Source: a virus. From it: a stretch of DNA of 64,000 bases. The stretch spans positions 16,509-80,508 of IMG/VR virus record IMGVR_UViG_3300010367_000050. One strand, given 5' to 3'. The position numbers and the translations under genes were made by a program. This document shows, piece after piece, positions 4,610-42,588 of this stretch (its first letter is position 1; each line of letters starts with the position of its first letter). Below the pieces are notes generated by a model. The model saw only the letters and a list, made by a program, of their open reading frames with translations, did not search any database and had not been told where the DNA came from.

Positions 4610-4816
4610 TTATGACTGTTGGTTGAGATCAGCCTCAGCCTTGGCAATCTCAGAATCAGCAAAATCTACGATCTGGTTTGCTTTGGTCTCAGCCATTTTG
4701 TGGAAGTCATCAAACGATAGTGCCGTCTGACCCTTTACAGCCTGGTTTGCTTTGTATTCAGCGTACAGCTGAACGGCCAGGGTAACGGCAGCAAGTACAA
4801 GCTGCTGTGTATTCAC
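4610..4816 (-). CDS. Small lysis-cassette protein with hydrophobic N-terminal helix
   Basis: 68 aa, AAGGAGG SD, last gene before the terminator. Confidence 0.75.
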   Translation of the reverse strand: MNTQQLVLAAVTLAVQLYAEYKANQAVKGQTALSFDDFHKMAETKANQIVDFADSEIAKAEADLNQQS

Positions 4817-4828
4817 GAGCCCTCCTTG

Positions 4829-5299
4829 TTAGTGGTTGGACAGCTGGACAACAGTGGAGATGGTGTTGAAGCCCAGCTGAATGGACGAAAGCAACTGGTT
4901 GAACTTCGCCAGGGAGTCCGGGTCCAAGCCGCCGACGGAGTTGACGATGACTTGAATATCAGCCAGACCTTGAGCAACTTGTGTACGAATGTCAGCCGCA
5001 CTCGCGTGGGACTTGATCAATCCGCTGAGTACAGGCTCCATCTGGCCGATTTTCTTGAAGGCTGATTGGATGACGATGTGATCCTGTGGCTTGATCAACT
5101 TCAGGGAGTACACGTCAGCTTCAGCCTGTTGAGCCAGTGAAGTGTAATTCATGACGTCATTCAGAACCGATTCGGCCTTGGCATAGGGGTCAAGGGTTGG
5201 GGCAACAACTCCAGTTGTGGAGGTGGAAGCCCGGTGAGCGCAACCGACTGTCGAGAAGACCAGAACGGCTGTAATGGTCAGGGCAAAAATCCTGCGCAT
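4829..5299 (-). CDS. Lipoprotein, spanin candidate
   Basis: MRRIFALTITAVLVFSTVG-C lipobox, helical body, downstream of endolysin and holin; AAGGAG SD at the revised start. Confidence 0.75.
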   Translation of the reverse strand: MRRIFALTITAVLVFSTVGCAHRASTSTTGVVAPTLDPYAKAESVLNDVMNYTSLAQQAEADVYSLKLIKPQDHIVIQSAFKKIGQMEPVLSGLIKSHASAADIRTQVAQGLADIQVIVNSVGGLDPDSLAKFNQLLSSIQLGFNTISTVVQLSNH

Positions 5300-5312: not shown

Positions 5313-5672
5313 TTATTCGTATTTGGGAATTTCCCTGGACAGACCCTTGGGAAGCTTGGAGTCCAGGAAGTCCAAGACATCGTCGGCCAGATACCCGGCG
5401 AACACCGCGGTCAGCTTTGTGATGGGAGCGGCGTATGTCAATGTGATACCAGCCCAGGCAAACAACTTGTTGGCGAGTGTTGGGTCCCCCACGTAGATAA
5501 GAAACAGACCCAGGAAGATGCCGAAGCGGATCACAAGCGGCACCCATAGCTTGATGAACCACGCTCCCATGGAAGGAGAAACGCCAGCCTTGACAGCGTT
5601 CTGCGCTCCCTTGAGACAGTGAAAAAGGAATCCCAGCAGCAGTAGCAGGGACAGAATGACGAGGTTGTTCAT
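5313..5672 (-). CDS. Putative holin
   Basis: 119 aa with about 3 hydrophobic segments and a charged C-terminus; adjacent to the endolysin. Confidence 0.65.
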   Translation of the reverse strand: MNNLVILSLLLLLGFLFHCLKGAQNAVKAGVSPSMGAWFIKLWVPLVIRFGIFLGLFLIYVGDPTLANKLFAWAGITLTYAAPITKLTAVFAGYLADDVLDFLDSKLPKGLSREIPKYE

Positions 5673-5685
5673 TATGATCTCCTTG

Positions 5686-6264
5686 TTAGATTGTGGGCCT
5701 TGTGTCAGCCCGTCTCAACCACCCATTCAGAAAAACCTTCTGCGTTGGGTCTCGTGCGACGATTGCGTTGTAATGGATTTTAGCCACTTGTACCAAATTG
5801 GTGTAAACCTGCTCTGGCGTGCACAGGTGAAGAGTGCTCAGAGTGGTAGGCCCGAGGTCTCCATCCAACGTGAGATGAACGCCAGAGCAAGCAGTGATGG
5901 CGGTCTGTAGCATAATCCTGCCAACCTTGGGTCCACAATTGTATCCCAGATCGAAGGTCTTCACTGCTAACAGAGGGTCCATCTGCTCGAATGCAGGTAC
6001 ATAAAATTTCAGTACCTTTGCAATTTCTCTAACATCAGAGCGACTCAGCTTGCGCAGATCATCAATGTCTACATCACCGTCTCCGTCCTTGTCAAAGGAC
6101 ACTGCAAAGTGATAAGCCATAGCGACCTTGCTGGCGTTGATCAAAGTTTGAAGGGTGACCCCCATCATTGTAGGGCCACCCTTGTCCAGAGGGTGATTTG
6201 AAAAACCACCCTCTATGTCCGGCCTCAGAGTGAAATCAAGGCACTTGTCCAGTATGTCTGCCAT
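5686..6264 (-). CDS. Endolysin, glycoside hydrolase family 108 with C-terminal peptidoglycan-binding domain
   Basis: EGGFSNHPLDKGGPTMMGVT (GH108 signature), FDLGYNCG, DGDLGPTTL, FLNGWLRR. Confidence 0.93.
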   Translation of the reverse strand: MADILDKCLDFTLRPDIEGGFSNHPLDKGGPTMMGVTLQTLINASKVAMAYHFAVSFDKDGDGDVDIDDLRKLSRSDVREIAKVLKFYVPAFEQMDPLLAVKTFDLGYNCGPKVGRIMLQTAITACSGVHLTLDGDLGPTTLSTLHLCTPEQVYTNLVQVAKIHYNAIVARDPTQKVFLNGWLRRADTRPTI

Positions 6265-6273
6265 GTTATTCTC

Positions 6274-6876
6274 CTAGTGCATTTGAGACAGGGAGTGGGT
6301 GTAGAACCGGAAGAGTAGCACGCACACAGTGATTACAAGTCCCAGCGCAACAGAGGCAAACACGACAAGCGCACCAAACACCTGTGTAACCAATATGGCT
6401 CCGATCCCTCGCTGTACAAGCTTCTCGTGCTTGTTGAGGTCCATACGGAGTTCGTGATGACCTCTCATCATATCTTCACGAAGCTTTTCAAGAGCTTGCT
6501 CGTTCTTCTCCATGCGCCGCTCGTTGGCTACGTGCATTTCTATTGTTTTTTCTTCTTTGTCTTTCACCATCTTCTCCACGAGGAATTTGGTGTCAACATT
6601 AGCTTGTTGCCAGCCTTTGTCGTAATGCTGACGTCTGGCTGGTTCCCCCTGAATGAAGGACTCAACCTTTGAGGCCCAACCTTCAACCTTGGCAGTAAGT
6701 TCATCAATCTTGCCTGTCAATACTTTCTCAAGTTTAGTCAAAAGTCCATCCGTCCCGCTGTGATCAAAGAGCATATTCATCCGCAACTCCGTCTCAGCTT
6801 GAAAGGTTTTCAGGCTCTCGATATCTTTGTCATGAGATATGTCGAGTGAACGCCCGCTGGCTCTGGTTGTGCCCAT
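6274..6876 (-). CDS. Coiled-coil protein with C-terminal membrane anchor (lysis-associated?)
   Basis: 200 aa, heptad-rich body, long hydrophobic C-terminus, immediately upstream of the endolysin. Confidence 0.7.
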   Translation of the reverse strand: MGTTRASGRSLDISHDKDIESLKTFQAETELRMNMLFDHSGTDGLLTKLEKVLTGKIDELTAKVEGWASKVESFIQGEPARRQHYDKGWQQANVDTKFLVEKMVKDKEEKTIEMHVANERRMEKNEQALEKLREDMMRGHHELRMDLNKHEKLVQRGIGAILVTQVFGALVVFASVALGLVITVCVLLFRFYTHSLSQMH

Positions 6877-6907: not shown

Positions 6908-7765
6908 CTATTGAACGTCAGTCTCATACCAGGATTGGCTTAGATACGTTGTGGTGCCTCCGCGATTGATCTGATACCACCAACCAGCAGGCACCATACA
7001 CCGGAATCCAACTGGTTGATTATTTGTGGTAGCTCCATATTGATTCGCGTCTATTCTCATAGAGGGAAAGCTTGGACCTACAGTACAGTCAACCCAAGAC
7101 CAGTTGGAACCATTTACGTTGAACCACCCTGATACAAAAATCATGTGGTTGGTGTTATTCTGATACGGAACCCCTGACCCGCGTGAACCACTCACGTCGT
7201 GAACATTTCCACCGATAACTGTGGGGGCTGGCGTGTCACAATTAGCTGATCCAGTGGTAGTTACTCCAGTAGCGAATTGACCAGCGCTGCACTGGTTAGG
7301 TGGATTGGCCAAAGCAGACGCGGTGTTAGCTGTATTGGCACTCCCAGCAGTCGTAGCGTTTCCGGCGTTCGTTGCATTGTCTGCGTTATTGGCGTGTCCA
7401 GCGTTTGTAGCATTTGCTGCATTCGTCGCATTCGTAGCGTTGACGGCATTCGTAGCGTTTGTAGCAGTTGTGGCACTGCCCGCACTACTGGAGTAGTCCG
7501 CGTTGGTAGCATGACCAGCGTTGGTAGCGGAACTTGCGTTTCCATTCAGTGAACCATTGAACACAGACGCTGTAACACTCGTTGCCACGTTCAAAGCATT
7601 AGCTACCAAGCTTGTAAACCCGCCGCTTGATGGCACGTTGTTACCGATTGGAGTGCTGTTGATCTGTGAAAGAGTGAGGTCCACTCCGCGTTGAGGAGTC
7701 AACCCAAAGGCAACTCCCAAGACAACGAGGATAACGGTAGCTCCAAATAATGTCTTGTTACGCAT
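6908..7765 (-). CDS. Tail fibre-like protein with N-terminal signal peptide and NAT repeats
   Basis: MRNKTLFGATVILVVLGVAFG leader; INSTPIG...GGFTSL fibre motif; (N-A-x)n repeats; beta-rich C-terminal head. Confidence 0.75.
   Translation of the reverse strand: MRNKTLFGATVILVVLGVAFGLTPQRGVDLTLSQINSTPIGNNVPSSGGFTSLVANALNVATSVTASVFNGSLNGNASSATNAGHATNADYSSSAGSATTATNATNAVNATNATNAANATNAGHANNADNATNAGNATTAGSANTANTASALANPPNQCSAGQFATGVTTTGSANCDTPAPTVIGGNVHDVSGSRGSGVPYQNNTNHMIFVSGWFNVNGSNWSWVDCTVGPSFPSMRIDANQYGATTNNQPVGFRCMVPAGWWYQINRGGTTTYLSQSWYETDVQ
7320..7545 (-). repeat. 9-nt period coding repeat (NAT/NAx tripeptides) in the fibre shaft
   Basis: ATNAGHATNA...ATNATNAVNATNATNAANATNAGHANNADNATNAGNATTAG. 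Confidence 0.85.
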
Positions 7766-7774
7766 AATGTCTCC

Positions 7775-8677
7775 TTAGATGGCTGTCATAGCCGTGAGAG
7801 GGTACAATTCCAGGTTGTCATGAGCCTTGAATTTCTGCTGCGATCTACTGTTGGCATCTGGAGCGACAAGGCCGAACCCGTGAACTGTGCCGGGGTTGGC
7901 AACGCCTCGGTTACCTAATCCGTCCTGTTGGAATATCAGGGTGATCTCCATACCTTCCTTCAGGTTGCTGAATCCGAAGGTGGCTACATCACTTGATAAC
8001 AGGATATGGAATGTTCTTCCCAGAGAGGCGTCCATAGTCATACCGGTAGCACCATTCACGTGGACTGTGGTTTCCAGTAGCTTTGCGGTCAACAACGCGC
8101 TGGTGATGAGGGCCAGGATAGCCGGGATGGACTGGAAGAATTGTGTGCGTTCAAACTTGATTTGATCAGCTGTGATAGCTGTTTGCCCAAATTCTCGCTT
8201 GACATCGCAAAGAAGACTTCCCACGAATCCGGCTGGGGGAGCTACTGGGTACACCGGTTCGTAGTCTTCATCGCCGACGACGAAAATGTATTGAACGTCG
8301 TCGTATGTTCTGTAGTTGATTACGTCACCCGCAGGAGTGGTGAGGGGAGTATCTGAAGTTTGCTTCGGGCAAGCGTACACTGTGACCCAGCGAGATTTAC
8401 CGGCTGCTGACACTGTGCCAGTCTGGGATAGATCGAGTGCCGTTGCCAGTGATGTTACCACTATGGTTCCGTCCTCCAGTACAATCTTGCCCGGCTGGAC
8501 TAGCACAGACATGGAGTTGACTGGAGTGGTAGGAAGCGTTCCGAACCCATTGACGATGCCTTTGTTTCCAAATGACACGAGGACATCACGGATTCCATTC
8601 TGAGGAACGGTCTCCACGGCTGTCATGTCTGGTACGCCGATGAGTTGTTCAAAATAGTAATTGTGCCGTTCCATCAA
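7775..8677 (-). CDS. Baseplate-attached tail fibre/adaptor protein
   Basis: Follows the KPA-ending wedge gene; GIVNGF...SVLVQPG N-terminal module; C-terminal TLIFQQDGLGNR module seen in fibre proteins. No signal peptide. Confidence 0.7.
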   Translation of the reverse strand: MMERHNYYFEQLIGVPDMTAVETVPQNGIRDVLVSFGNKGIVNGFGTLPTTPVNSMSVLVQPGKIVLEDGTIVVTSLATALDLSQTGTVSAAGKSRWVTVYACPKQTSDTPLTTPAGDVINYRTYDDVQYIFVVGDEDYEPVYPVAPPAGFVGSLLCDVKREFGQTAITADQIKFERTQFFQSIPAILALITSALLTAKLLETTVHVNGATGMTMDASLGRTFHILLSSDVATFGFSNLKEGMEITLIFQQDGLGNRGVANPGTVHGFGLVAPDANSRSQQKFKAHDNLELYPLTAMTAI

Positions 8678-8686
8678 ATCTCCTCG

Positions 8687-9445
8687 TTATTGAAAGACAA
8701 AGCGCCAGTTGTACCTGGCGGGCTTCATGAATTCCACAATGGTAGCGATCTCATCCAACAGATTGTCGTTGGCTCCAAACATGAAGTAGGGGTCCGCGTA
8801 CAAGTCAGTGACTTCATCTGCAGACACAGTCCTATTCCAAATTCTCACGTATTCCAAAGCTGGATTGTTGTAGAAACTTTCCAATTCAGGAAGGTCTGAA
8901 AACTTTGAGATCGTAAGAAATCTGGCAGCTGGAGACTGAGTATCCGTTAGAATTCCATCGATGTAAGTGAATTGCCCAATTCCGGGGTCTTGTGAGATCA
9001 CAACATGGCGTTGGTGATCAGAATTATCCCACGCTAAATACTCGATGGAGTATTTGCCGGCCAGGAAAACGTCCTCAGCTAAATTAGCATCGGCTCCCGA
9101 GAAGTCAATTCTCAGCGCAGGCCTCGCATCGGTTCCTACTGTAACCCAAGTTGCACCAGAACGAGTCGCGGTGTTCCCGCCAGCTACATCATCAGCATTT
9201 CCTGCACCTTCCCATAGGGGCCAAAATTGCGGTATAAACTCTAATGATGGACCCTGCGCTATGGTCAGACTGGATGACGCGGGTTTAGCCCCGGCTATCC
9301 TACGCTTGACATAAACAATGAAAGTTGGAGAGTTGGGGTCATACAGAATTGTAGCCCCTTCTTCGACAGGGGGCGAAGAAGGGTCATAACCACCCCACCC
9401 ACCTTGACCCCAGCCGCCTTGACCCCATCCAATATTTGGACTCAT
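8687..9445 (-). CDS. Baseplate wedge gpI-like C-terminal half with LamG/concanavalin-like insert
   Basis: Ends IATIVEFMKPARYNWRFVF (gpI-type KPA motif); RHVVI...TYIDG...YVRIWNRTVSADEV is LamG-like; starts GWGQGGWGQGGWGG. Confidence 0.65.
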   Translation of the reverse strand: MSPNIGWGQGGWGQGGWGGYDPSSPPVEEGATILYDPNSPTFIVYVKRRIAGAKPASSSLTIAQGPSLEFIPQFWPLWEGAGNADDVAGGNTATRSGATWVTVGTDARPALRIDFSGADANLAEDVFLAGKYSIEYLAWDNSDHQRHVVISQDPGIGQFTYIDGILTDTQSPAARFLTISKFSDLPELESFYNNPALEYVRIWNRTVSADEVTDLYADPYFMFGANDNLLDEIATIVEFMKPARYNWRFVFQ

Positions 9446-9451
9446 GTGTAA

Positions 9452-9489
9452 CCCTCGGTTTGAAGTATATCACAATCTCAAACCGAGGG
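9452..9489 (-). promoter_or_regulatory. 12-bp inverted repeat covering the SD of the 9445 gene, with an extended -10 element in the loop
   Basis: CCCTCGGTTTGA-N14-TCAAACCGAGGG; the minus-strand loop reads TG-A-TATACT. Confidence 0.6.
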
Positions 9490-9536
9490 GTAGTTGATTC
9501 AGAATTACAGGCAACGCTGGTTACCATTGCAACAGG

Positions 9537-12500
9537 CTACCATGTCCAATAAATTGAAACATCGATTGTTGGAGCCGTTGCGCAAGTGCCAGAGCTTATA
9601 GCAATCCCATAATAATGTCCGCTTACTGTTGGAGTTACTCCTGATGCTTGGTAAACACCATCGGACGTACCTGTAAACAAGGTTTGTACAGTAGTTGCGG
9701 AACCATATACTGTTGATGGGCTTGTTCCTAAATCCATCAGGTTGATTGTGGGCGCAACCGTACAAGAAATCGAGCCTTCAAGACGCGCGGTGATGAGCGG
9801 TCCAGTAGTACCGACATAGGTCGTATAAAATACATGACCTAGCATCGTTCCAGTTGCAAATACAGCAGGGGAAATAGTTGTACTGACATTCGTACTTATA
9901 AGCCCATTGTTAATTGCGTTTTGAACATATGCAGTTGTTGCAACTAACGTTGAACTATCAGCGCTTGTTTGAGTTGTGGCTGTTGTTCCATTAGGTAGCA
10001 CTGTCGTATCGACAGCATTTAGGTTGGAATCTATTCCGACAATGTGGCCGCTGGTGAAGGTGCCCAACGCACTTAGTAATTTTGTGCCTGTTGTTCCTTG
10101 TACTCCTGTAAGTAGAGTGCTGCGACCAAAGAGTTCCAGACCTGTTTGCTTGAGGCCCCAGAGACGGTTGTTCAAGCTGTCGGAAAACAATGCTAAATAA
10201 CCAGCAAATGAGGAGTCTGGTGATACAAAAATACCGCATCCGCCCGAAGGACAGGCACCACTGCTGCTGTTAGCCTTGATCCTGAAGATGGGAACAGTCC
10301 CAGTCATGAACCCAGTAGAAAAGGCAAAGTCCATGTTTGGATTGTTTGTGGCGGTTACTTGGAAATTGAATGGCTGAAGGCTAAGAACTCGGTCGTTTCC
10401 GTGAGTATTCCCGCACTGGAAAGCGTGAGACCAGCCATTGGTCATAATGTCAAATGAGCAATAATTGGCTCCGTTGGCTGCGTCTTGCGTCTTGATTCTC
10501 CAAGCTCCAGTACCGCCAAGTACGCTTCCCTGGGCGAAGTACACATTGTAGTTGTTGTCTGGAGTTTTGAACCCGGCCACTGTTCCAAAGTCTATTGGAG
10601 TAGCTGGAGAGTTCACTACAAGATAACCTGACGGGTTCCATTTGCTAGCTGTGTAAACTGTGCCAGCGCCACCAGTATCATACATACAAGGATTGGTCTT
10701 TGTATTCGTGTAAAGGGCTGTGTCATAAACCACGATTGGACCAGAATATCCAGCTGTTCGAATCAAAGAGTAATAGAACGCCCCGAGAATGGGTCGAGGT
10801 AGACAAATTTGAATGTAATTGGTTGCACTCAGAGTTGCAGGCCCAGTAGTGACGTTGACTACAGGAGAACAACCACTGGGGTTGAGATTACCGCCTCCAG
10901 CTGCGCAAATCATGTAAGATGCTGAGGTACTTCCTACTGCCGCTGGAGGAATATAAACAGTAGGAGTTGTAAGAGTGTCCGGTTGGGTGACGAGAGCGCC
11001 TTTGCTAATAATTCCACCCAGTGCTGTTATTTGATGAAGTGCAGGATCAAAATACAATCCAACGCCTCCAGTCCTGGTAAACTTTACTGAAGGGGCTGTT
11101 ACGGACCCTTGACCAACTTCAATAGCAGTGAATGCCTTAGTCGCAAAAAGATCCTGCGGCGGAATTCCTCCAACTTGTTGAGCAATCGAATTTAGCAAAG
11201 CTCGCCCACCAGGACCAATGTGGGTGGTAGGGTCACTAACTCCAAATAACAACCTGGTGAGTCCATCATGTGAGTTGGGTTGAGCAAAACCTACATCAAG
11301 AAACATCGCGTTGCCGCTTACGCCACGATTGATCTGGTTTACTTGAGCCATTATTGCTTGATCTAAAGGACCAACCGCGTTTACAGTGGAAGTATTGCCT
11401 GCTTGGTACGCATCAACCCAAACTAAATCTGCGGTGTACGCTCGGCATTGCGTATCCCACCCGTAACCAGCTGCGTTACAAGCTGTCGATGTGCCATAGG
11501 TAGCTGCTTTGGTTACGTGTTGAGCGTTTGTGCGATCGTAGTCCTTTTGGAAGTAGGTTTCGATTCCATTCCCAGCTTCAGTCCTGTTATCGAAGTACTG
11601 CACATACGTTGTGTCTGGAATTGGCATTCCATTGTACCACGGAGCAGTATACGAGTCTGGAGCCGCAAACAAGCTATCATAGCTCGAACCGCCGAAGCCC
11701 ATGTCTTCAATAACAATACCACTCTGGTTAGGGTTGTAAAGACCAAATCCCACGATCTTCACCGCATCGCCAGAGTTTGTTACCTTCACATAGCCAATTC
11801 CATCATGAGTGACCCTAGCTTCTTGAATGCTTATGTTTGATGTGAGAAGATTCCCCCATGTTGGCAATGAACCAGTACAACTTCCCCCGGTTACAGTTAT
11901 GGTAGATGTGTATGGGTTATATCCACTGCCCTGACTGGTAACAGTGACATGATCAATCTGACCTAGAGAATTAGGAAACGCAGTACCAACGAATCCTGTG
12001 CCTCCAGTAGCTCCAAGAGTGAGTGTTCCACATCCAGACCCGCTGCCTACACCAAGCACTCCAACAGCAACAATACCTCCAGTAGCAGCGCATGAACTTG
12101 GTTGGGTGCTAGAGAGAGTTTCGTTGAAATAGTTGAGACCGTCAGAAGACGTTTGAATATTGATGGTAGATGGCTTACCGTCGCACAGATAGAAGACGGA
12201 AGCCTGCTGCATATTGCGCTGTCGTGTATCTGTGCCCATTTGCGCTGAAACAAGATTGAATGTCAGAGTACCAGTAGTACTGGACGAACCCAGGATAAGG
12301 GACGAACCATTTGGAGTTGTGGGGTCTGGTGCCCCGTTAGGGGAAAGCGTTACAGAACCACTGGTACCGGAATTCAGATTGATTGAGCCCTGACCGAGTC
12401 CATAGAAACCTTCATTGTTAGCTCCACCAGTATGCGCTGTACTAGTGAAATATCCAGCTACACCCAATCCAAAAGACTGCTGCATAATGGAATAAAAGGT

Positions 12501-13331
12501 TGCAAAAGCACTTACGGAGTCACCGTGAAATCTAACAGCCCACTGAACAAGGGAGGGTATTCCTGTGATAGAGGGAGTTACGCCGTTGTTGAGGAGATCA
12601 ATCCAGTGGGACTTGATGGTCCCCTCACGCGGGTAATAATCTTTGCGTTGAGTGGTAGGCTGGAAAAAGTTATTGCCTCGACTTCCAAACGTCTTCCCAG
12701 CGCGGTCATCCACAACCTGTGTCGTGCATGTTGGCGTCATGTAGTTTGGAGTATTGTCAACTGTATCAGTAACAGTTGAGTTCGCAGGTACATACACATT
12801 CAAATTTGTGGCTGGTGCGCAAGCTGCTGTGTAAGCCGCTTGGATAGTGGCGTATGTTACGCCATCAGCTATTACCAGTCCTAATGCCGAAGTTGAACCT
12901 CCATTGGATGTTGAAATAACGTTGTACCCGGAGGTATCCGAAAAGGCCACTCCACTCTGTCCGTTAGCAAAGACAGCAGATGAGCCCGTTGTAGCCTTGA
13001 CGCACACATTCTTACCGCCCAGTGTATTGTTCTTGACGTACACCGCCCTGCCAGGAGAGATTGGAAGAATCAAGCACCTGTCTGCAGTCAAAGAGACAGA
13101 GCTTGAAACGATGAAGGTGCCACGGAAGGGTCCGTCAGCGGCAGGAACAGTGCATCCGCTGGGAGATACGATATCGCAATCCGCATTGCCAATCACAATA
13201 GACGACAACCCGTGATCGCTGTCCGTGGGCGAGTTTACTGTTGAGTGGGCACTCAAGCCGATACCCTGAGCATAGCTCATTGTCCCAGCAAAGGCCAACA
13301 GCAGAGCAAGAAATAATTTGCGCATTTTCAC
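9537..13331 (-). CDS. Large tailspike/fibre-like protein with signal peptide and putative SGNH-esterase domain
   Basis: MRKLFLALLLAFAGTMSYA-Q leader; LTADRCLILP...YVKNNTLGG fibre N-domain; FHGDS / GFGGSS / YFDN / DPTTH SGNH-like blocks; ADSSTLVATTAYVQNA fibre motif. Confidence 0.75.
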   Translation of the reverse strand: MKMRKLFLALLLAFAGTMSYAQGIGLSAHSTVNSPTDSDHGLSSIVIGNADCDIVSPSGCTVPAADGPFRGTFIVSSSVSLTADRCLILPISPGRAVYVKNNTLGGKNVCVKATTGSSAVFANGQSGVAFSDTSGYNVISTSNGGSTSALGLVIADGVTYATIQAAYTAACAPATNLNVYVPANSTVTDTVDNTPNYMTPTCTTQVVDDRAGKTFGSRGNNFFQPTTQRKDYYPREGTIKSHWIDLLNNGVTPSITGIPSLVQWAVRFHGDSVSAFATFYSIMQQSFGLGVAGYFTSTAHTGGANNEGFYGLGQGSINLNSGTSGSVTLSPNGAPDPTTPNGSSLILGSSSTTGTLTFNLVSAQMGTDTRQRNMQQASVFYLCDGKPSTINIQTSSDGLNYFNETLSSTQPSSCAATGGIVAVGVLGVGSGSGCGTLTLGATGGTGFVGTAFPNSLGQIDHVTVTSQGSGYNPYTSTITVTGGSCTGSLPTWGNLLTSNISIQEARVTHDGIGYVKVTNSGDAVKIVGFGLYNPNQSGIVIEDMGFGGSSYDSLFAAPDSYTAPWYNGMPIPDTTYVQYFDNRTEAGNGIETYFQKDYDRTNAQHVTKAATYGTSTACNAAGYGWDTQCRAYTADLVWVDAYQAGNTSTVNAVGPLDQAIMAQVNQINRGVSGNAMFLDVGFAQPNSHDGLTRLLFGVSDPTTHIGPGGRALLNSIAQQVGGIPPQDLFATKAFTAIEVGQGSVTAPSVKFTRTGGVGLYFDPALHQITALGGIISKGALVTQPDTLTTPTVYIPPAAVGSTSASYMICAAGGGNLNPSGCSPVVNVTTGPATLSATNYIQICLPRPILGAFYYSLIRTAGYSGPIVVYDTALYTNTKTNPCMYDTGGAGTVYTASKWNPSGYLVVNSPATPIDFGTVAGFKTPDNNYNVYFAQGSVLGGTGAWRIKTQDAANGANYCSFDIMTNGWSHAFQCGNTHGNDRVLSLQPFNFQVTATNNPNMDFAFSTGFMTGTVPIFRIKANSSSGACPSGGCGIFVSPDSSFAGYLALFSDSLNNRLWGLKQTGLELFGRSTLLTGVQGTTGTKLLSALGTFTSGHIVGIDSNLNAVDTTVLPNGTTATTQTSADSSTLVATTAYVQNAINNGLISTNVSTTISPAVFATGTMLGHVFYTTYVGTTGPLITARLEGSISCTVAPTINLMDLGTSPSTVYGSATTVQTLFTGTSDGVYQASGVTPTVSGHYYGIAISSGTCATAPTIDVSIYWTW

Positions 13332-13340
13332 AATTCCCCT

Positions 13341-14465
13341 TTAGTTATTTGGCCTCGGGCTATAGGACCCAGAGATGTAAGTATTGACAGTTGCGTACAG
13401 GCACATACCCACCGAATCGCTGTGTTGATTGGTGAACGTGAATGAAGTGCCAGAGTCCATAACGAGAGCAAACCCCGATACTGTGTCTGTCCATGATGAG
13501 TGGGTACAGCTGCCCGGAGTCGCAACGTAAATCTTCTGACCTCCAGTTGGAGAGTATGGACCGTACACCTTGTTTACAACAGTCGTTACTACCCCAGCGT
13601 CTGTCAGAGTTCCCGACGTGTTTAGAGTACAGTTGTTGCTACTGGCAGAACACGAGGTGGCTCCAGTAGTTCCAACTCCACCGAACGTACGGGCGTTCCA
13701 ACTTACAGTCGTTGATTGTGTCTTGGGAACTCCGTTCCCGGTCGCGTTCAGGGTGAACGTTGTTGAACTCGCTGAATGTTTTACAAATGAGCCTGTTACC
13801 GAGCCGCTGGTGAACGGGCTACTGAGAGTTGTAGGAGAACTGATGCTGTCGGTATTGGTGATGGTAGCGACCGTTGGCGTCACCGAATACGCTGCGCTGA
13901 ACGTTGGATTTGTCAGCGTTGTTCCAATCTCCAGCAACGTTGTAGGCGTCGTAAAGCTGTTGATGGTGAACGACGGACCTGACGAAATTGTGGTGGTACC
14001 CCCACCAGTGGAGATAGCAATGCCGTCACCGGCTACCAAGTTAGGAACATGATTGTCCACATATTGCTTCGTGGTCGCTTGCAACCCCGTAGTTGGGTCA
14101 GCAGGCAGCACAATTGCTCCGGTCATAGTACCACCAGCCAACGGCAAGTAGCCTGCAATGGTTCCGCTGAAGGAGCCAGTGAGAAGGCTCAGATTTCCGC
14201 TTTGATCAATGGACAAAAGGTGGGTTCCGTCATTCTTGTCGATGTAGAAGGTTCCTGAATTGCGCAACCTCCACGGAGCGGAATTGTCTCCTGTGAGATA
14301 GCCTTCCAGCATCGTCATATTGCCATTGGCCACCACATCCCAATTTGGGTAGCCTTTGGGTGGTATGTAGAACTTCAACTTGGGAGTCTGGTACTGAGGC
14401 CCAAGCTGCGCCTGGGCTGATAACAGACCAAACAATAGTGTGATGGCAAATACAATCCGTCGCAT
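13341..14465 (-). CDS. Tail fibre-like protein with signal peptide
   Basis: MRRIVFAITLLFGLLSAQA-Q leader; TPKLKFYIP...NWDVVANGNMTMLE and YLPLAGGTMTGAI...ATTKQYVD fibre motifs; Thr/Ser-rich beta C-terminus. Confidence 0.78.
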   Translation of the reverse strand: MRRIVFAITLLFGLLSAQAQLGPQYQTPKLKFYIPPKGYPNWDVVANGNMTMLEGYLTGDNSAPWRLRNSGTFYIDKNDGTHLLSIDQSGNLSLLTGSFSGTIAGYLPLAGGTMTGAIVLPADPTTGLQATTKQYVDNHVPNLVAGDGIAISTGGGTTTISSGPSFTINSFTTPTTLLEIGTTLTNPTFSAAYSVTPTVATITNTDSISSPTTLSSPFTSGSVTGSFVKHSASSTTFTLNATGNGVPKTQSTTVSWNARTFGGVGTTGATSCSASSNNCTLNTSGTLTDAGVVTTVVNKVYGPYSPTGGQKIYVATPGSCTHSSWTDTVSGFALVMDSGTSFTFTNQHSDSVGMCLYATVNTYISGSYSPRPNN

Positions 14466-14521
14466 GGACTCTCCTTTGAGTCAGGTCTGACGGAGAGTAG
14501 GACACGCTGTCAATCAACAGA

Positions 14522-14986
14522 TTAGGACGTTGTAGTGCCGCCCAAAGTGCTTACACCGAGTCTCCAGCAGTACTCTAGGTCCACACGGATAGTCACGTTT
14601 GCCCCGGTGAGATAACGGATTGCTGAGATCATACCCTGCTTCGTACCCCTGCGAGCATAGATGTCTGTCAACTGTTCCAGCTTGTTGCCAGCTTTCCAGC
14701 GTTCAGGAGTCATGAATGGAAACGGGGTGCCCAGCTTTTGAGCATTGTACGGGATGAAGTCCACGGGCGAATTTCTGACAACGCCGATCTGGCTCAATAG
14801 AACAGTAGCATCCTGTACCTCTTGTTGCTGGGAAGTGTACGCTTCAGCAAAATCCACAAGAGACCCGTCGTCCACTGTGATGTAGATTCCAGGTATGATC
14901 TCAAGTATGTCAATGGGGGTTGCTGAATAGCCCCCATAGCCACCTTCGCCCCATCCGCCCTCGCCCCATCCGCTTTGTGGTGTCAT
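14522..14986 (-). CDS. Baseplate wedge P2 gpI-like protein, N-terminal half
   Basis: Directly after baseplate J; FIPYNAQKLG and IYARRGTKQGM motifs; ends WRLGVSTLGGTT; starts GWGEGGWGEGGYGG. Confidence 0.8.
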   Translation of the reverse strand: MTPQSGWGEGGWGEGGYGGYSATPIDILEIIPGIYITVDDGSLVDFAEAYTSQQQEVQDATVLLSQIGVVRNSPVDFIPYNAQKLGTPFPFMTPERWKAGNKLEQLTDIYARRGTKQGMISAIRYLTGANVTIRVDLEYCWRLGVSTLGGTTTS

Positions 14987-16413
14987 GAGAAAGTAACCGT
15001 CCCCAATACTGGAAATTCATTTACAGCTAGCTGTGTATCAGCAGGAGCAAGAATGGCAAGATTGCGAACCCCAGCAAGTTGCTGAAGAATGGCGATCTGA
15101 ACAGATGTATAGATTCCCATACCGAACTCGGGTTTGAATCCGGAGTACCCATTGACTGGATCATACGCTGGATCATACATATTGATGAGAGCCTGGCGGA
15201 TCACATTCTGTACGCTAACCTGTGTATAGCCTGTAGACACATTCAGCTGAATGTTGTAGTTCATCGTCCTGTACGTCGGGCCCATAACCACGATCTCATG
15301 GCCAAGCACAACTGGCTTCGTCACTGTTAGCAGAGTGATTACGTCAGACTTCAACTGATCTGAAGGTTGTCCACCGCCCACCGGAACAATAAACACTTCA
15401 ATCATCTGACGTGGCAAGCTGGAAAGCGTCTTCCAGTTCACGGCCTGAGCTACCTGAACTCCAGGAATCTGAGTCACGGCGGACTCAATGTCGTCCAAAG
15501 TCAGCAGGGCTTGCGGAACCCGCAGATTGTCTACTGCGTGATAACGTACCTGATCCATGGTTTCCACATCGCCACCCGGAGTAGCCGCAAGAGCATTGAT
15601 AGCCGTCAAACTCAAGGGCTGAGCGCTGCCAGCATCGTTGACGTCAGATACGGCATTGGTCAGCTGCTGAGCACCAATGGCTCCTTTGGATCCACCTCCT
15701 GTTTTGTATGACATTTGGATGTTGGCATTCACAGGCGGCTTCTTGCCAGTAGCTCCATTTCCAAAGATAACTGTCGACACGCCGTTTGAATTGGTATAGG
15801 TCGAGTAATGCGTGTCTGTAGCAAGGGAGTCGACAAAGTTTTTCACGAATGTCCAAGTTACCCCATTGACAACGACAACCACTTCGTCCGGCATAACAGG
15901 GTAGTTGGTTAGATCGTACATCTGGTTAGCAGCACCAGTGCCGGTTGCGTTGTCAGTATATGACACCCACTGCTTCATCAAGACAGCGTCTGATAGTGTG
16001 GCTCCGGCACGAATTACAACGGGCTCAGTGGTCTCATACACAATCCCAGGCAGGGTGGTGTTGAACTGAGTTCCGGCGGGAATTTCTGTATCTGCCGTGA
16101 CTGCTGTTGCTGACTGAATCACCGCTGAAACATAGGAGGGTGTTTGCCAGCGTGGCGTGTATCCAAGGCCACGAGCGTGAGCAAACACATTCCTTGGATC
16201 CAATGCCTCCATGATGAAAGCTTCACGGGCCATACGATTGATGTATGCGAAGTTCATCTCTGCTACCATAGAGATGGCTTCAAGCAACATGATCATATTG
16301 TTGGAGTCTTGGTTGTCGGTCCACTCCGGAAACTTGATGGTGAGGCGTGCGATCAACTCCTGAAGGAGACTGTCAGCAGTAACTGATGTCAAAGGAAGCT
16401 GGTCAACTGGCAT
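14983..16413 (-). CDS. Baseplate J-like wedge protein
   Basis: FPEWTD, ARGLGYTP, IPAGTQF, IFGNGATGKKPP, YKTGGGSKG, GGDVET motifs. Confidence 0.92.
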   Translation of the reverse strand: MPVDQLPLTSVTADSLLQELIARLTIKFPEWTDNQDSNNMIMLLEAISMVAEMNFAYINRMAREAFIMEALDPRNVFAHARGLGYTPRWQTPSYVSAVIQSATAVTADTEIPAGTQFNTTLPGIVYETTEPVVIRAGATLSDAVLMKQWVSYTDNATGTGAANQMYDLTNYPVMPDEVVVVVNGVTWTFVKNFVDSLATDTHYSTYTNSNGVSTVIFGNGATGKKPPVNANIQMSYKTGGGSKGAIGAQQLTNAVSDVNDAGSAQPLSLTAINALAATPGGDVETMDQVRYHAVDNLRVPQALLTLDDIESAVTQIPGVQVAQAVNWKTLSSLPRQMIEVFIVPVGGGQPSDQLKSDVITLLTVTKPVVLGHEIVVMGPTYRTMNYNIQLNVSTGYTQVSVQNVIRQALINMYDPAYDPVNGYSGFKPEFGMGIYTSVQIAILQQLAGVRNLAILAPADTQLAVNEFPVLGTVTFS

Positions 16414-16422
16414 GAAGGACTC

Positions 16423-16821
16423 CTACAGAGAGAATTGAACCTGCGTGTTTGCTGTGGACTCCGTAAAGTCCGGATTGATAACTGTGTAGTTGATGGTGAT
16501 ATTGAAGTTGTTGGAAGTATCTGTATCAATGGTTATGTCAGACGCTTCAACCTTGACCCTGGGCTCCCATTTCTTGATAGCTTCCAGTATTAGGTTTGTA
16601 ATCAATTGCTTGGTCGAATCCGAGGTGTCCTCAAACTGCATACGGCACACGCGGCAGCCGAATGTGGGATTCCAAGGACGCTCTCCAGGAAACGTTTGGA
16701 GAATCTGCAACAATGAGGAGTTGATCAATGCAATAGTATTATTGCGGACATAGGTCAACCTGCCTACCGCAGCCTTGCTGATCATCGGAAATGGGAATCC
16801 AGACTGTTGACTCAGACTCAT
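16423..16821 (-). CDS. gp25/GPW-like baseplate protein
   Basis: ILQTFPGERPWNPTFGC...IKKWEPRV. Confidence 0.93.
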   Translation of the reverse strand: MSLSQQSGFPFPMISKAAVGRLTYVRNNTIALINSSLLQILQTFPGERPWNPTFGCRVCRMQFEDTSDSTKQLITNLILEAIKKWEPRVKVEASDITIDTDTSNNFNITINYTVINPDFTESTANTQVQFSL

Positions 16822-42148: not shown

Positions 42149-42588
42149 CGTTGGGAAGATAGTGTTTCATGGATCGTCTTCTGTGTTTGATGAATCCATA
42201 GCGCAAGGCTGGAAGGGCACAGTTCATGTAACTGATGTACCCCGTCTTGCGGTTATGGAGGCTGTATGGAAGTGCTCTGGAGATGGGTCGCATATAGATG
42301 ACTCTCTCAAGAAAGTACACGTTGGTGGGCGTCCTACTCTCTACATGCTTGTTGTCAATCCACGCAAACTACGTTGGGATGACGCATGGTGTAAAGAAGA
42401 CGGACCCCCACTTTTGCTGGTCGTTACCGGCTTCTGCCATTTGGGATACAGTAAAGTTAGACCGCGCGTGCTTGAAACAATTGATACAGGAGTTGTTGGA
42501 GAAACGCACGTACCACGACTACAACAAGATTACACTTATCAACGACACCGAAAGTCTGAATCAGATACGTGTGGTCCAAGGAGAATAA
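42126..42588 (+). pseudogene. Hypothetical gene apparently broken by one extra C in the C5 run at 42405-42409
   Basis: Removing one C joins MIVYRK...WCKEDG to PHFCWSLPAS...VVQGE and fills the gap to the next gene; span is 3n+1. Confidence 0.55.

Follow-up and report, generated by a model that had tools for sequence, protein, structure and literature searches.

Tailed-phage assembly is regarded as wholly cytoplasmic, and some receptor-binding proteins, such as T4 long fibres and P22 tailspikes, can join otherwise complete particles as a last step. Several phage proteins use the host Sec system, namely Sec and SAR endolysins, spanins and the Llp and Cor proteins (PMC6116005); these are lysis or exclusion proteins, small or enzymatic, and none of them is a fibre-type receptor-binding protein. 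The MAT fibres of Bdellovibrio bacteriovorus combine a Sec signal peptide with a conserved N-terminal domain, a phage-like trimeric fibre and swappable tips (PMC10769870). When we searched the literature for exported receptor-binding proteins of tailed phages we found only endolysin and Lom-type cases, and no paper on Sec leaders of such receptor-binding proteins. Here we examine three fibre-type genes in IMG/VR virus record IMGVR_UViG_3300010367_000050, a myovirus genome of 80,508 bases rated 99% complete, of which bases 16509-80508 make up the 64,000-nucleotide stretch analysed (the window, whose numbering is used throughout). The phage is an uncultured soil myovirus, and its host is probably an acidobacterium. 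We consider it very probable that these three proteins, P0001, protein 2 and P0003, are exported to the host periplasm, cleaved and folded there oxidatively; that the matured fibres dock on virions at lysis is a proposition to which we give an even chance.

Three late fibre-type proteins begin with Sec-type leaders

All three open reading frames (ORFs) named in the original prediction are present on the minus strand, and their translations agree. P0001 (13341..14465, 374 aa, 4 Cys) consists of a leader, a fibre N-terminal domain, an LPLAGGTMTG..TKQYVD block and two Ig/FN3-like beta-sandwiches. Protein 2 (1262 aa, 22 Cys) has a leader, a conserved body and a hypervariable 172-aa C-terminal tip. 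Its ORF, predicted as 9537..13331, is real, although ATG 13325 is a more likely start than GTG 13331: MRK opens both the database copy, P0084, and every orthologue. With this start the gene spans 9537..13325. P0003 (6908..7765, 285 aa, 4 Cys) carries a leader or anchor, an INSTPIG motif, NATNA-type repeats, a CxxGQ..C loop and a conserved C-terminal domain with a Cys pair.

Leaders were called with a simple hydropathy and charge rule rather than SignalP, and genes in the loci compared were called as longest ORFs. Each of the three leaders has a basic n-region and an uncharged hydrophobic core. Those of P0001 (residues 1-19, 14409..14465, MRRIVFAITLLFGLLSAQA then Gln) and protein 2 (residues 1-19, 13269..13325, MRKLFLALLLAFAGTMSYA then Gln) show the n-h-c organisation, ending by a hand rule in a small-x-small site followed by Gln (AQA-Q and SYA-Q, with the hyphen marking the predicted cut), and both have the basic n-region and the core of about 7-15 residues, within the first 25-30 residues, of Sec/signal peptidase I substrates. 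In P0003, the segment (residues 1-21, 7703..7765, MRNKTLFGATVILVVLGVAFG then Leu) has a Gly/Ala/Thr-rich core of 17-18 residues, longer than is typical, and an AFG-L end without a clear site. The P0003 leader may therefore be an uncleaved signal-anchor; P0101 has a similar N-terminus that ends LAWG-L. As a side observation, the Gly/Ala/Thr-rich helix of P0003 resembles SAR endolysin domains, and a protein held in the membrane and released by the holin is offered as an idea only.

Each leader ATG lies 5-9 nt downstream of a Shine-Dalgarno (SD) sequence, AAGGAG for P0001 and P0003 and AAGGGG for protein 2, and there is no in-frame start codon between the leader and the conserved N-terminal motif, which together indicate that the leaders are translated. 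When applied to 102 crudely called ORFs of the whole genome, the rule flagged five: the three fibre ORFs, one polytopic membrane protein outside the window and one 96-aa early ORF. By this crude measure, the fibre ORFs are the only late ORFs in the genome with leaders. The early ORF (42298-42588, plus strand) has a leader-like start, MTLSRKYTLVGVLLSTCLLSIHA, and may encode a small exported or membrane protein. We also looked for C-terminal sorting tags, that is, an outer-membrane protein beta-signal, a PEP-CTERM sequence or a type IX secretion system C-terminal domain, and found none, the C-termini of orthologues being unrelated. A candidate outer-membrane beta-signal at the end of protein 2 (…VSIYWTW) was rejected, since the orthologues end differently and the aromatic end is not conserved.

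Leaders are conserved among diverged relatives and follow the host-lineage pattern

Protein 2 has four orthologues, which are 49-63% identical to it overall and 52-66% identical by local BLASTP. All four retain MRK, a hydrophobic core and then G/A-Q, whereas the leader sequence itself is just 40-45% identical among orthologues; a pattern kept at low identity is how signal peptides would be expected to evolve. Leaders are likewise found in 25 of 74 P0001 homologues, where nearly all end in a small residue followed by Gln; Gln occupies position +1 in 21 of these 25, a count from a site choice biased toward Gln. The C-terminal domain of P0003 is present in P0093, P0094, P0097 and P0134, three of which have leaders ending AQ, while that of P0097, whose start is truncated, ends SQ.

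Several further observations concern these relatives. One protein 2 orthologue is encoded by the acidobacterium Terriglobus sp. 2YAB30_2 (L029 7631-13672, from scaffold NZ_JBFRFJ010000020), where it closes a phage-like block and has host efflux and TetR genes next to it; upstream of it lie a 303-aa leader-bearing ORF and a 467-aa ORF with a leader from an internal Met start. The block is probably a prophage, or a remnant of one, with a different tail module. Many metagenomic matches to P0003 (P0104, P0106, P0111, P0112, P0118 and others) are 200-300 aa long and combine an N-terminal membrane anchor of the ..VALGGSSYAA type with the NATNA-type repeats of P0003; they make up a separate family of anchored repeat proteins. 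At least eight different large leader-bearing ORFs on IMG/VR contigs (L055, L057, L062-L066 and L071) carry Q-[IV]-[PS]APQI-x-[LV]-[ST]-GN-[ILV]-G right after the predicted cleavage site, and small P0001-like ORFs on IMG/VR contigs have ..PAPQVKG[IV]VQP[VA]NGG in common. That proteins otherwise unlike one another keep the same mature N-terminus gives it the look of a shared docking peptide.

The site preference is shared with the presumed host lineage. In a 400-kb sample of Terriglobus sp. 2YAB30_2 (L034-L053), in which sites were chosen without a bonus for Gln, no residue followed the predicted site nearly as often as Gln, which did so in 13 of 42 leader-like ORFs, a set that includes membrane proteins and false calls. 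Both a glutaminyl cyclase (PF05096, 323 bits) and a disulfide oxidoreductase of the VKOR type (68 bits) are encoded in the same genome. A rule of Gln at +1, with pyroglutamate formation, has been described for Bacteroidetes in a study in which Acidobacteria were not analysed (PMC5837995). P0001 and protein 2 both have Gln at +1, with glutaminyl cyclase in the host lineage, and the 'Bacteroidetes Q-rule' may extend to Acidobacteriota. That the phage leaders copy the Ala-Gln pattern of the host lineage argues for a real use of host Sec and signal peptidase I.

Leaders and cysteines occur together

The predicted cysteine numbers, 4 in P0001, 22 in protein 2 and 4 in P0003, with none in baseplate J, proved correct. 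Among the other structural proteins, the tube and tape measure likewise have none, the major capsid protein has one, and the portal and sheath have two each. Across the P0001 homologues, the median Cys count is 5 in the 25 with leaders, 19 of which have an even number, and 0 in the 49 without (Mann-Whitney p = 3e-9). A second comparison covered same-strand ORFs of at least 200 aa on 18 IMG/VR contigs with the P0001 C-terminal domain. Here the median is 10 Cys for the 29 leader-bearing ORFs, every one of which has at least one, and 0 for the 67 leaderless ORFs, 34 of which have none (p = 1.5e-10). On each of the 18 contigs, between one and four leader-bearing ORFs come after a series of leaderless ORFs that have few Cys or none.

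No residue type in protein 2 is as well conserved as Cys, of which 19 of 22 are invariant compared with 32% of all positions (Fisher p = 2e-7), and most of these residues form local pairs (for example 50/58, 616/627, 807/819, 956/971 and 1025/1030). Both Cys of the P0003 C-terminal domain are retained in leader-bearing relatives. C272 and C279 of P0001 are modelled in two strands that follow one another (272-275 and 278-281), an arrangement that is suggestive only. Taken as a pattern across homologues, the co-occurrence of leaders and Cys, together with the conservation of the latter, is the signature expected of folding in an oxidising compartment. The proposal that the three proteins are exported, cleaved and oxidised is thus strongly supported by comparison, through the conserved leaders, their link to Cys, the invariant Cys and the Ala-Gln site.

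The proteins are homologous to tail fibres and protein 2 has a swapped tip

The fibre motifs on which the original prediction relied reflect real homology. Residues 9-145 of P0001, which include part of the leader, align at 2e-12 with a tail fiber protein of Tunturiibacter phage Tunturi_5, and 24 viral contigs contain the LPLAGGTMTG..ATTKQYVD block. Among relatives, the P0001 N-terminal domain is joined to differing C-termini. Two leaderless proteins, P0068 (Peptidase_S74 and Phage_fiber_2) and P0082, start MAxT[YF]TxNY..KP..G....W, and these starts align right after the predicted cleavage site of P0001, of its relatives and of the Tunturi 5 fibres; relatives of P0082 are annotated as tail fibres in cultured cyanophages. 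Homologues that start downstream of the leader had been put forward as a sign that the leaders are spurious. Such homologues do exist, but they are leaderless tail fibres and give no evidence of a wrong start: taken with the ribosome-binding sites and with the large number of relatives that do bear leaders, they show that the leader is a module gained or lost on an ordinary fibre.

In the AlphaFold2 (AF2) model of P0001, the leader forms a helix (residues 2-20), residues 20-140 are of low confidence, and residues 150-374 are modelled as two Ig/FN3-like sandwiches with a predicted local distance difference test score (pLDDT) above 90. Such uncertainty is unsurprising where a trimeric shaft is modelled as a single chain. 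Structural neighbours of P0001 in BFVD are phage proteins, several of them named tail fibre and some from crAss-like phages (best 1.7e-15), and fold searches of solved structures with the same model returned generic Ig/FN3 matches only. The body of protein 2 is 43-73% identical to its orthologues and the last 172 residues, the tip, 13-21%; this tip swapping is typical of host-range determinants.

Other searches added little. Pfam and PHROGs gave nothing useful on the three fibre proteins, a low-complexity match of P0003 being spurious; a sequence search of solved structures returned no match for P0001, P0002 or P0004, the ESM Atlas none for protein 2, and a collection of cultured phages none for protein 2 or P0003. 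With P0001 as a single query, the viral and genome collections yielded only leaderless proteins with the common fibre motif.

The genes lie in a late fibre slot with leaderless neighbours

A complete contractile-tail morphogenesis module is carried on the minus strand, as identified with Pfam and PHROG, in the order large terminase, portal, protease, major capsid protein, sheath, tube, tape measure, hub/spike, gp25-like protein and baseplate J. The fibre slot (6908-14986) follows baseplate J, and the lysis cassette lies beyond it. This agrees with the placement between baseplate and lysis genes in the original prediction. All genes described in this section are on the minus strand. Upstream are a leaderless gp25-like baseplate wedge protein of 132 aa (16423..16821; Pfam GPW_gp25 6e-18; PHROG baseplate wedge) and the leaderless Baseplate J-like protein of 476 aa (14983..16413; Pfam Baseplate_J 2.6e-7; phrog_219 3e-32), for which a scan of IMG/VR found no relatives. 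Next comes a leaderless protein of 154 aa (14522..14986) with an N-terminal GWGEGGWGEGGYGGY motif, whose gene overlaps J by 4 nt. It matched nothing in Pfam or PHROG, and is a putative gpI-like protein by its position and motif.

Two leaderless ORFs that the original prediction did not include are interleaved with the leader-bearing ones. P0005 (8687..9445, 252 aa, 0 Cys) has a GWGQGGWGQGGWGGY N-terminus followed by a LamG/ConA-like lectin domain; it has no Pfam match, and its structural neighbours in the ESM Atlas are Laminin_G_3 clusters at template modelling (TM) scores of 0.5-0.6, which serve as a lead only. P0004 (7775..8674, 299 aa from ATG 8674, a start from which more than 100 homologues align at their first residue) is a TssK-like baseplate-periphery protein, similar to receptor-binding-protein (RBP) shoulder domains, with a separate C-terminal domain. 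Its AF2 model (pLDDT 89.8) matched TssK (6n38, 5mwn), the baseplate of the Anabaena contractile injection system (7b5h) and the phi812 baseplate (9euj) in Foldseek at E 8e-5 to 8e-4, with probability 1.00 yet TM of only 0.25-0.33. In line with a TssK/RBP-shoulder assignment, the shoulder-domain fold is at the N-terminus and the gene is near the wedge genes. The P0004 N-terminal domain occurs in more than 100 proteins with other C-termini, some of which are Gp53-like_C, Collar or PTR (phage tail repeat). A baseplate periphery made in the cytoplasm from such leaderless proteins could act as a docking platform.

P0005 and the 154-aa gpI-position protein both begin GWGxGGWGxGG[WY]GGY. About 80% of the roughly 50 nt that encode this Gly/Trp motif agree between the two genes, and the P0001/protein-2 pair lies between the copies of this direct repeat (14920-14986 and 9380-9445). 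The arrangement may reflect recombinational exchange of a cassette or, alternatively, a pair of paralogous adaptors. Paralogy of the two whole proteins was considered and rejected, as BLASTP detected no similarity between them outside this motif.

Between the last fibre gene and the endolysin lies a 200-aa coiled-coil protein with a C-terminal membrane helix (6274..6876), for which no family match was found. The endolysin is leaderless (5686..6264; GH108 and PG_binding_3, Pfam 2.5e-13 and 2.9e-7; phrog_315), and is followed by a holin-like multi-pass membrane protein of 119 aa, assigned from position and hydrophobic segments (5313..5672), and by a putative outer-membrane spanin-like lipoprotein of 156 aa, read from Met28 of its ORF, with the lipobox STVG-C (4829..5299). 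The cassette also includes a small membrane protein of spanin type. The ORF at 4610..4816 is followed by a strong terminator-like hairpin at 4603-4586, the only one on the minus strand. Inside the fibre slot, promoter- and terminator-like sites are no commoner than chance by an E. coli-type consensus, which is weak evidence; with the terminator past the lysis genes, this makes the fibre genes appear part of a late gene run. On the same weak evidence we set aside autonomous, 'moron'-like expression of the fibre genes.

Proposed maturation and alternative explanations

We propose that the three late genes of the fibre slot encode host-recognition proteins bearing a host-type Sec/signal peptidase I signal. 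The fibres would cross the inner membrane, where P0001 and protein 2 would be cut at Ala-Gln, their new N-terminal Gln perhaps being cyclised by the host glutaminyl cyclase, and P0003 would possibly be held in the membrane by its N-terminal helix. Folding in the periplasm would then proceed with formation of disulfide bonds, probably as trimers. Meanwhile the head, tail and baseplate, including the gpI-like protein, P0004 and P0005, would be assembled in the cytoplasm. Once holin, endolysin and spanins break the envelope the compartments would mix, allowing mature fibres to dock via their conserved N-terminal domains onto the finished baseplate, with the variable C-terminal tips setting host range.

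Docking at lysis is made plausible by the late-operon position, by N-terminal domains common to true fibres and to Tunturi 5, by the swapped tip and by the annotation, from tandem mass spectrometry (MS/MS), of leader-bearing proteins in Cellulophaga phage phi18:3. Several points weigh on the other side of the proposal. Fibres released at lysis would be quickly diluted; the MS/MS annotation comes from a phage of another phylum with a short tail, where co-purifying envelope proteins could explain it; and the leaderless TssK-like and LamG-like baseplate proteins might alone serve adsorption. The leader assignments themselves depend on a crude rule in place of a signal-peptide predictor, and P0003 is without a clear cleavage site. 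A broader version, in which tailed phages of Acidobacteriota, and probably those of Bacteroidota too, build their particles in two compartments, with fibres that are Sec-exported, cut at Ala-Gln, given their disulfides in the periplasm and attached when lysis merges the compartments, falls in our view slightly short of an even chance; in it, the cytoplasm-built TssK-like/LamG-like periphery of this phage would be the docking platform.

The strongest competing explanation is that the proteins are exported without becoming part of the virion, and act as fibre-like proteins at the envelope of the infected cell, soluble in the periplasm or tethered. There they could bind or mask receptors, remodel exopolysaccharide or serve as decoys that keep progeny off debris, with adsorption left to the leaderless TssK-like and LamG-like baseplate proteins. 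This phage does possess such baseplate-periphery proteins with plausible binding domains, which is the chief argument for an envelope role, and the anchor-like rather than cleaved start of P0003 fits a tethered protein. There are also precedents: the MAT fibres are Sec-exported, phage-fibre-like trimers that act on a cell surface (PMC10769870), and proteins of Porphyromonas gingivalis phages with Q-rule signal peptides have been read as host-surface modifiers (PMC10367356). Set against this, the fibre proteins begin, once matured, where true tail fibres begin, their genes sit in the late run directly after J and the gpI-like gene with promoter signals of their own not above chance, the swapped tip of protein 2 follows the pattern of host-range determinants, and the leader-bearing neighbours in phi18:3 are annotated as virion proteins from MS/MS. 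The receptor-masking proteins Llp and Cor are small lipoproteins, and the proteins here, at 285-1262 aa, have no lipobox and no Cys near the cleavage site. We regard an envelope role as less likely than docking. If the proteins do stay on the cell, phages would be seen to encode large, fibre-derived envelope proteins, a class not described before.

Much less probable is that the leaders are not used for export, with both folding of the proteins and their attachment to the baseplate taking place in the cytoplasm. The hydrophobic N-terminus would then be hidden within the baseplate, be cut off by a phage protease or serve to keep assembly at the membrane; the cysteines would be metal ligands or would become oxidised only once the proteins are released. 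To our knowledge, all known tailed-phage assembly is cytoplasmic, as this explanation has it. In P. gingivalis phages, the SignalP-type patterns of capsid proteins were not taken as a sign of export (PMC10367356). The low confidence of the model over residues 20-140 of P0001 also counts on this side. However, leader and Cys are gained and lost together across homologues, the leaders match the Ala-Gln pattern of the host-lineage sample, the charge of the n-region would put the body of the protein outside the membrane, leaderless relatives manage without the segment, and no other structural protein of the phage starts in this way. Finally, a chance or annotation artefact, with true starts downstream and hydrophobic stretches that are untranslated or accidental, can be dismissed as very nearly out of the question: leaderless homologues do begin just past the leader position, but there is no in-frame start before the N-terminal motif, strong SD sites precede the leader ATGs and the leaders are conserved in dozens of diverged homologues.

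If periplasmic maturation of the fibres, the explanation we prefer, is true, it would add a post-lysis attachment step to the cytoplasmic scheme of tailed-phage assembly and make virion assembly dependent on host Sec, signal peptidase and disulfide machinery. It would also explain the use of disulfide-rich binding domains by soil phages of this group, and would change how receptor-binding proteins are predicted and expressed for phages of Acidobacteria and Bacteroidota.

Comparison with known systems

Compared with ordinary leaderless fibres and spikes (the P2 gpH slot, T4 long fibres, the P22 tailspike and the P0068 type), the three genes occupy the same place after J and the gpI-like gene, and share the N-terminal motif, the LPLxGGTMTG..TKQYVD block, a conserved body with a swapped tip and tail-fibre neighbours in BFVD. 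They differ in their Sec-type leaders of 19-21 residues and conserved Cys pairs, the median for leaderless relatives being 0 Cys. With endolysins, spanins and Llp/Cor they have in common a use of the host Sec system, as we propose it, and the phage has its own lipoprotein spanin-like gene in addition. The MAT fibres of Bdellovibrio, which the proteins here resemble by description, are products of chromosomal predator genes, are displayed on the predator's own surface and lie outside any phage tail module.

Two cultured phages share the feature and so make the question directly testable. In Cellulophaga phage phi18:3 (NC_021794), gp085-gp087 are three adjacent large late proteins ahead of the lysis genes, with leaders ending SQ, AQ and AQ, respectively, and are annotated from MS/MS proteomics (GenBank notes) as virion structural, structural and tail protein. 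This phage differs in its Bacteroidota host, its short tail and the few Cys in these proteins (0, 1 and 3), and we found no sequence similarity to the proteins here. Tunturi 5 (PP885688; PMC11924767) is, like the phage here, a contractile-tailed phage of Acidobacteriota. The P0001 N-terminal domain is found in two of its large ORFs that are annotated as tail fibres, gp337 (34% identity, 2e-12) and gp341, and gp337, gp338 and gp341 all start with leaders, two of which end A-Q. The paper describing it does not mention the leaders (PMC11924767). Tunturi 5 is set apart by its size, being a 309-kb jumbo phage, and by other C-terminal parts.

Set beside these systems, the locus described here adds the case of a contractile-tailed phage in which leaderless TssK-like and LamG-like proteins are interleaved with fibres that are probably exported. 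Also new are Tunturi 5 as a cultured myovirus model, the alignment of predicted mature ends with the starts of leaderless fibres, and the preference for Gln at +1 together with glutaminyl cyclase and VKOR in a Terriglobus genome.

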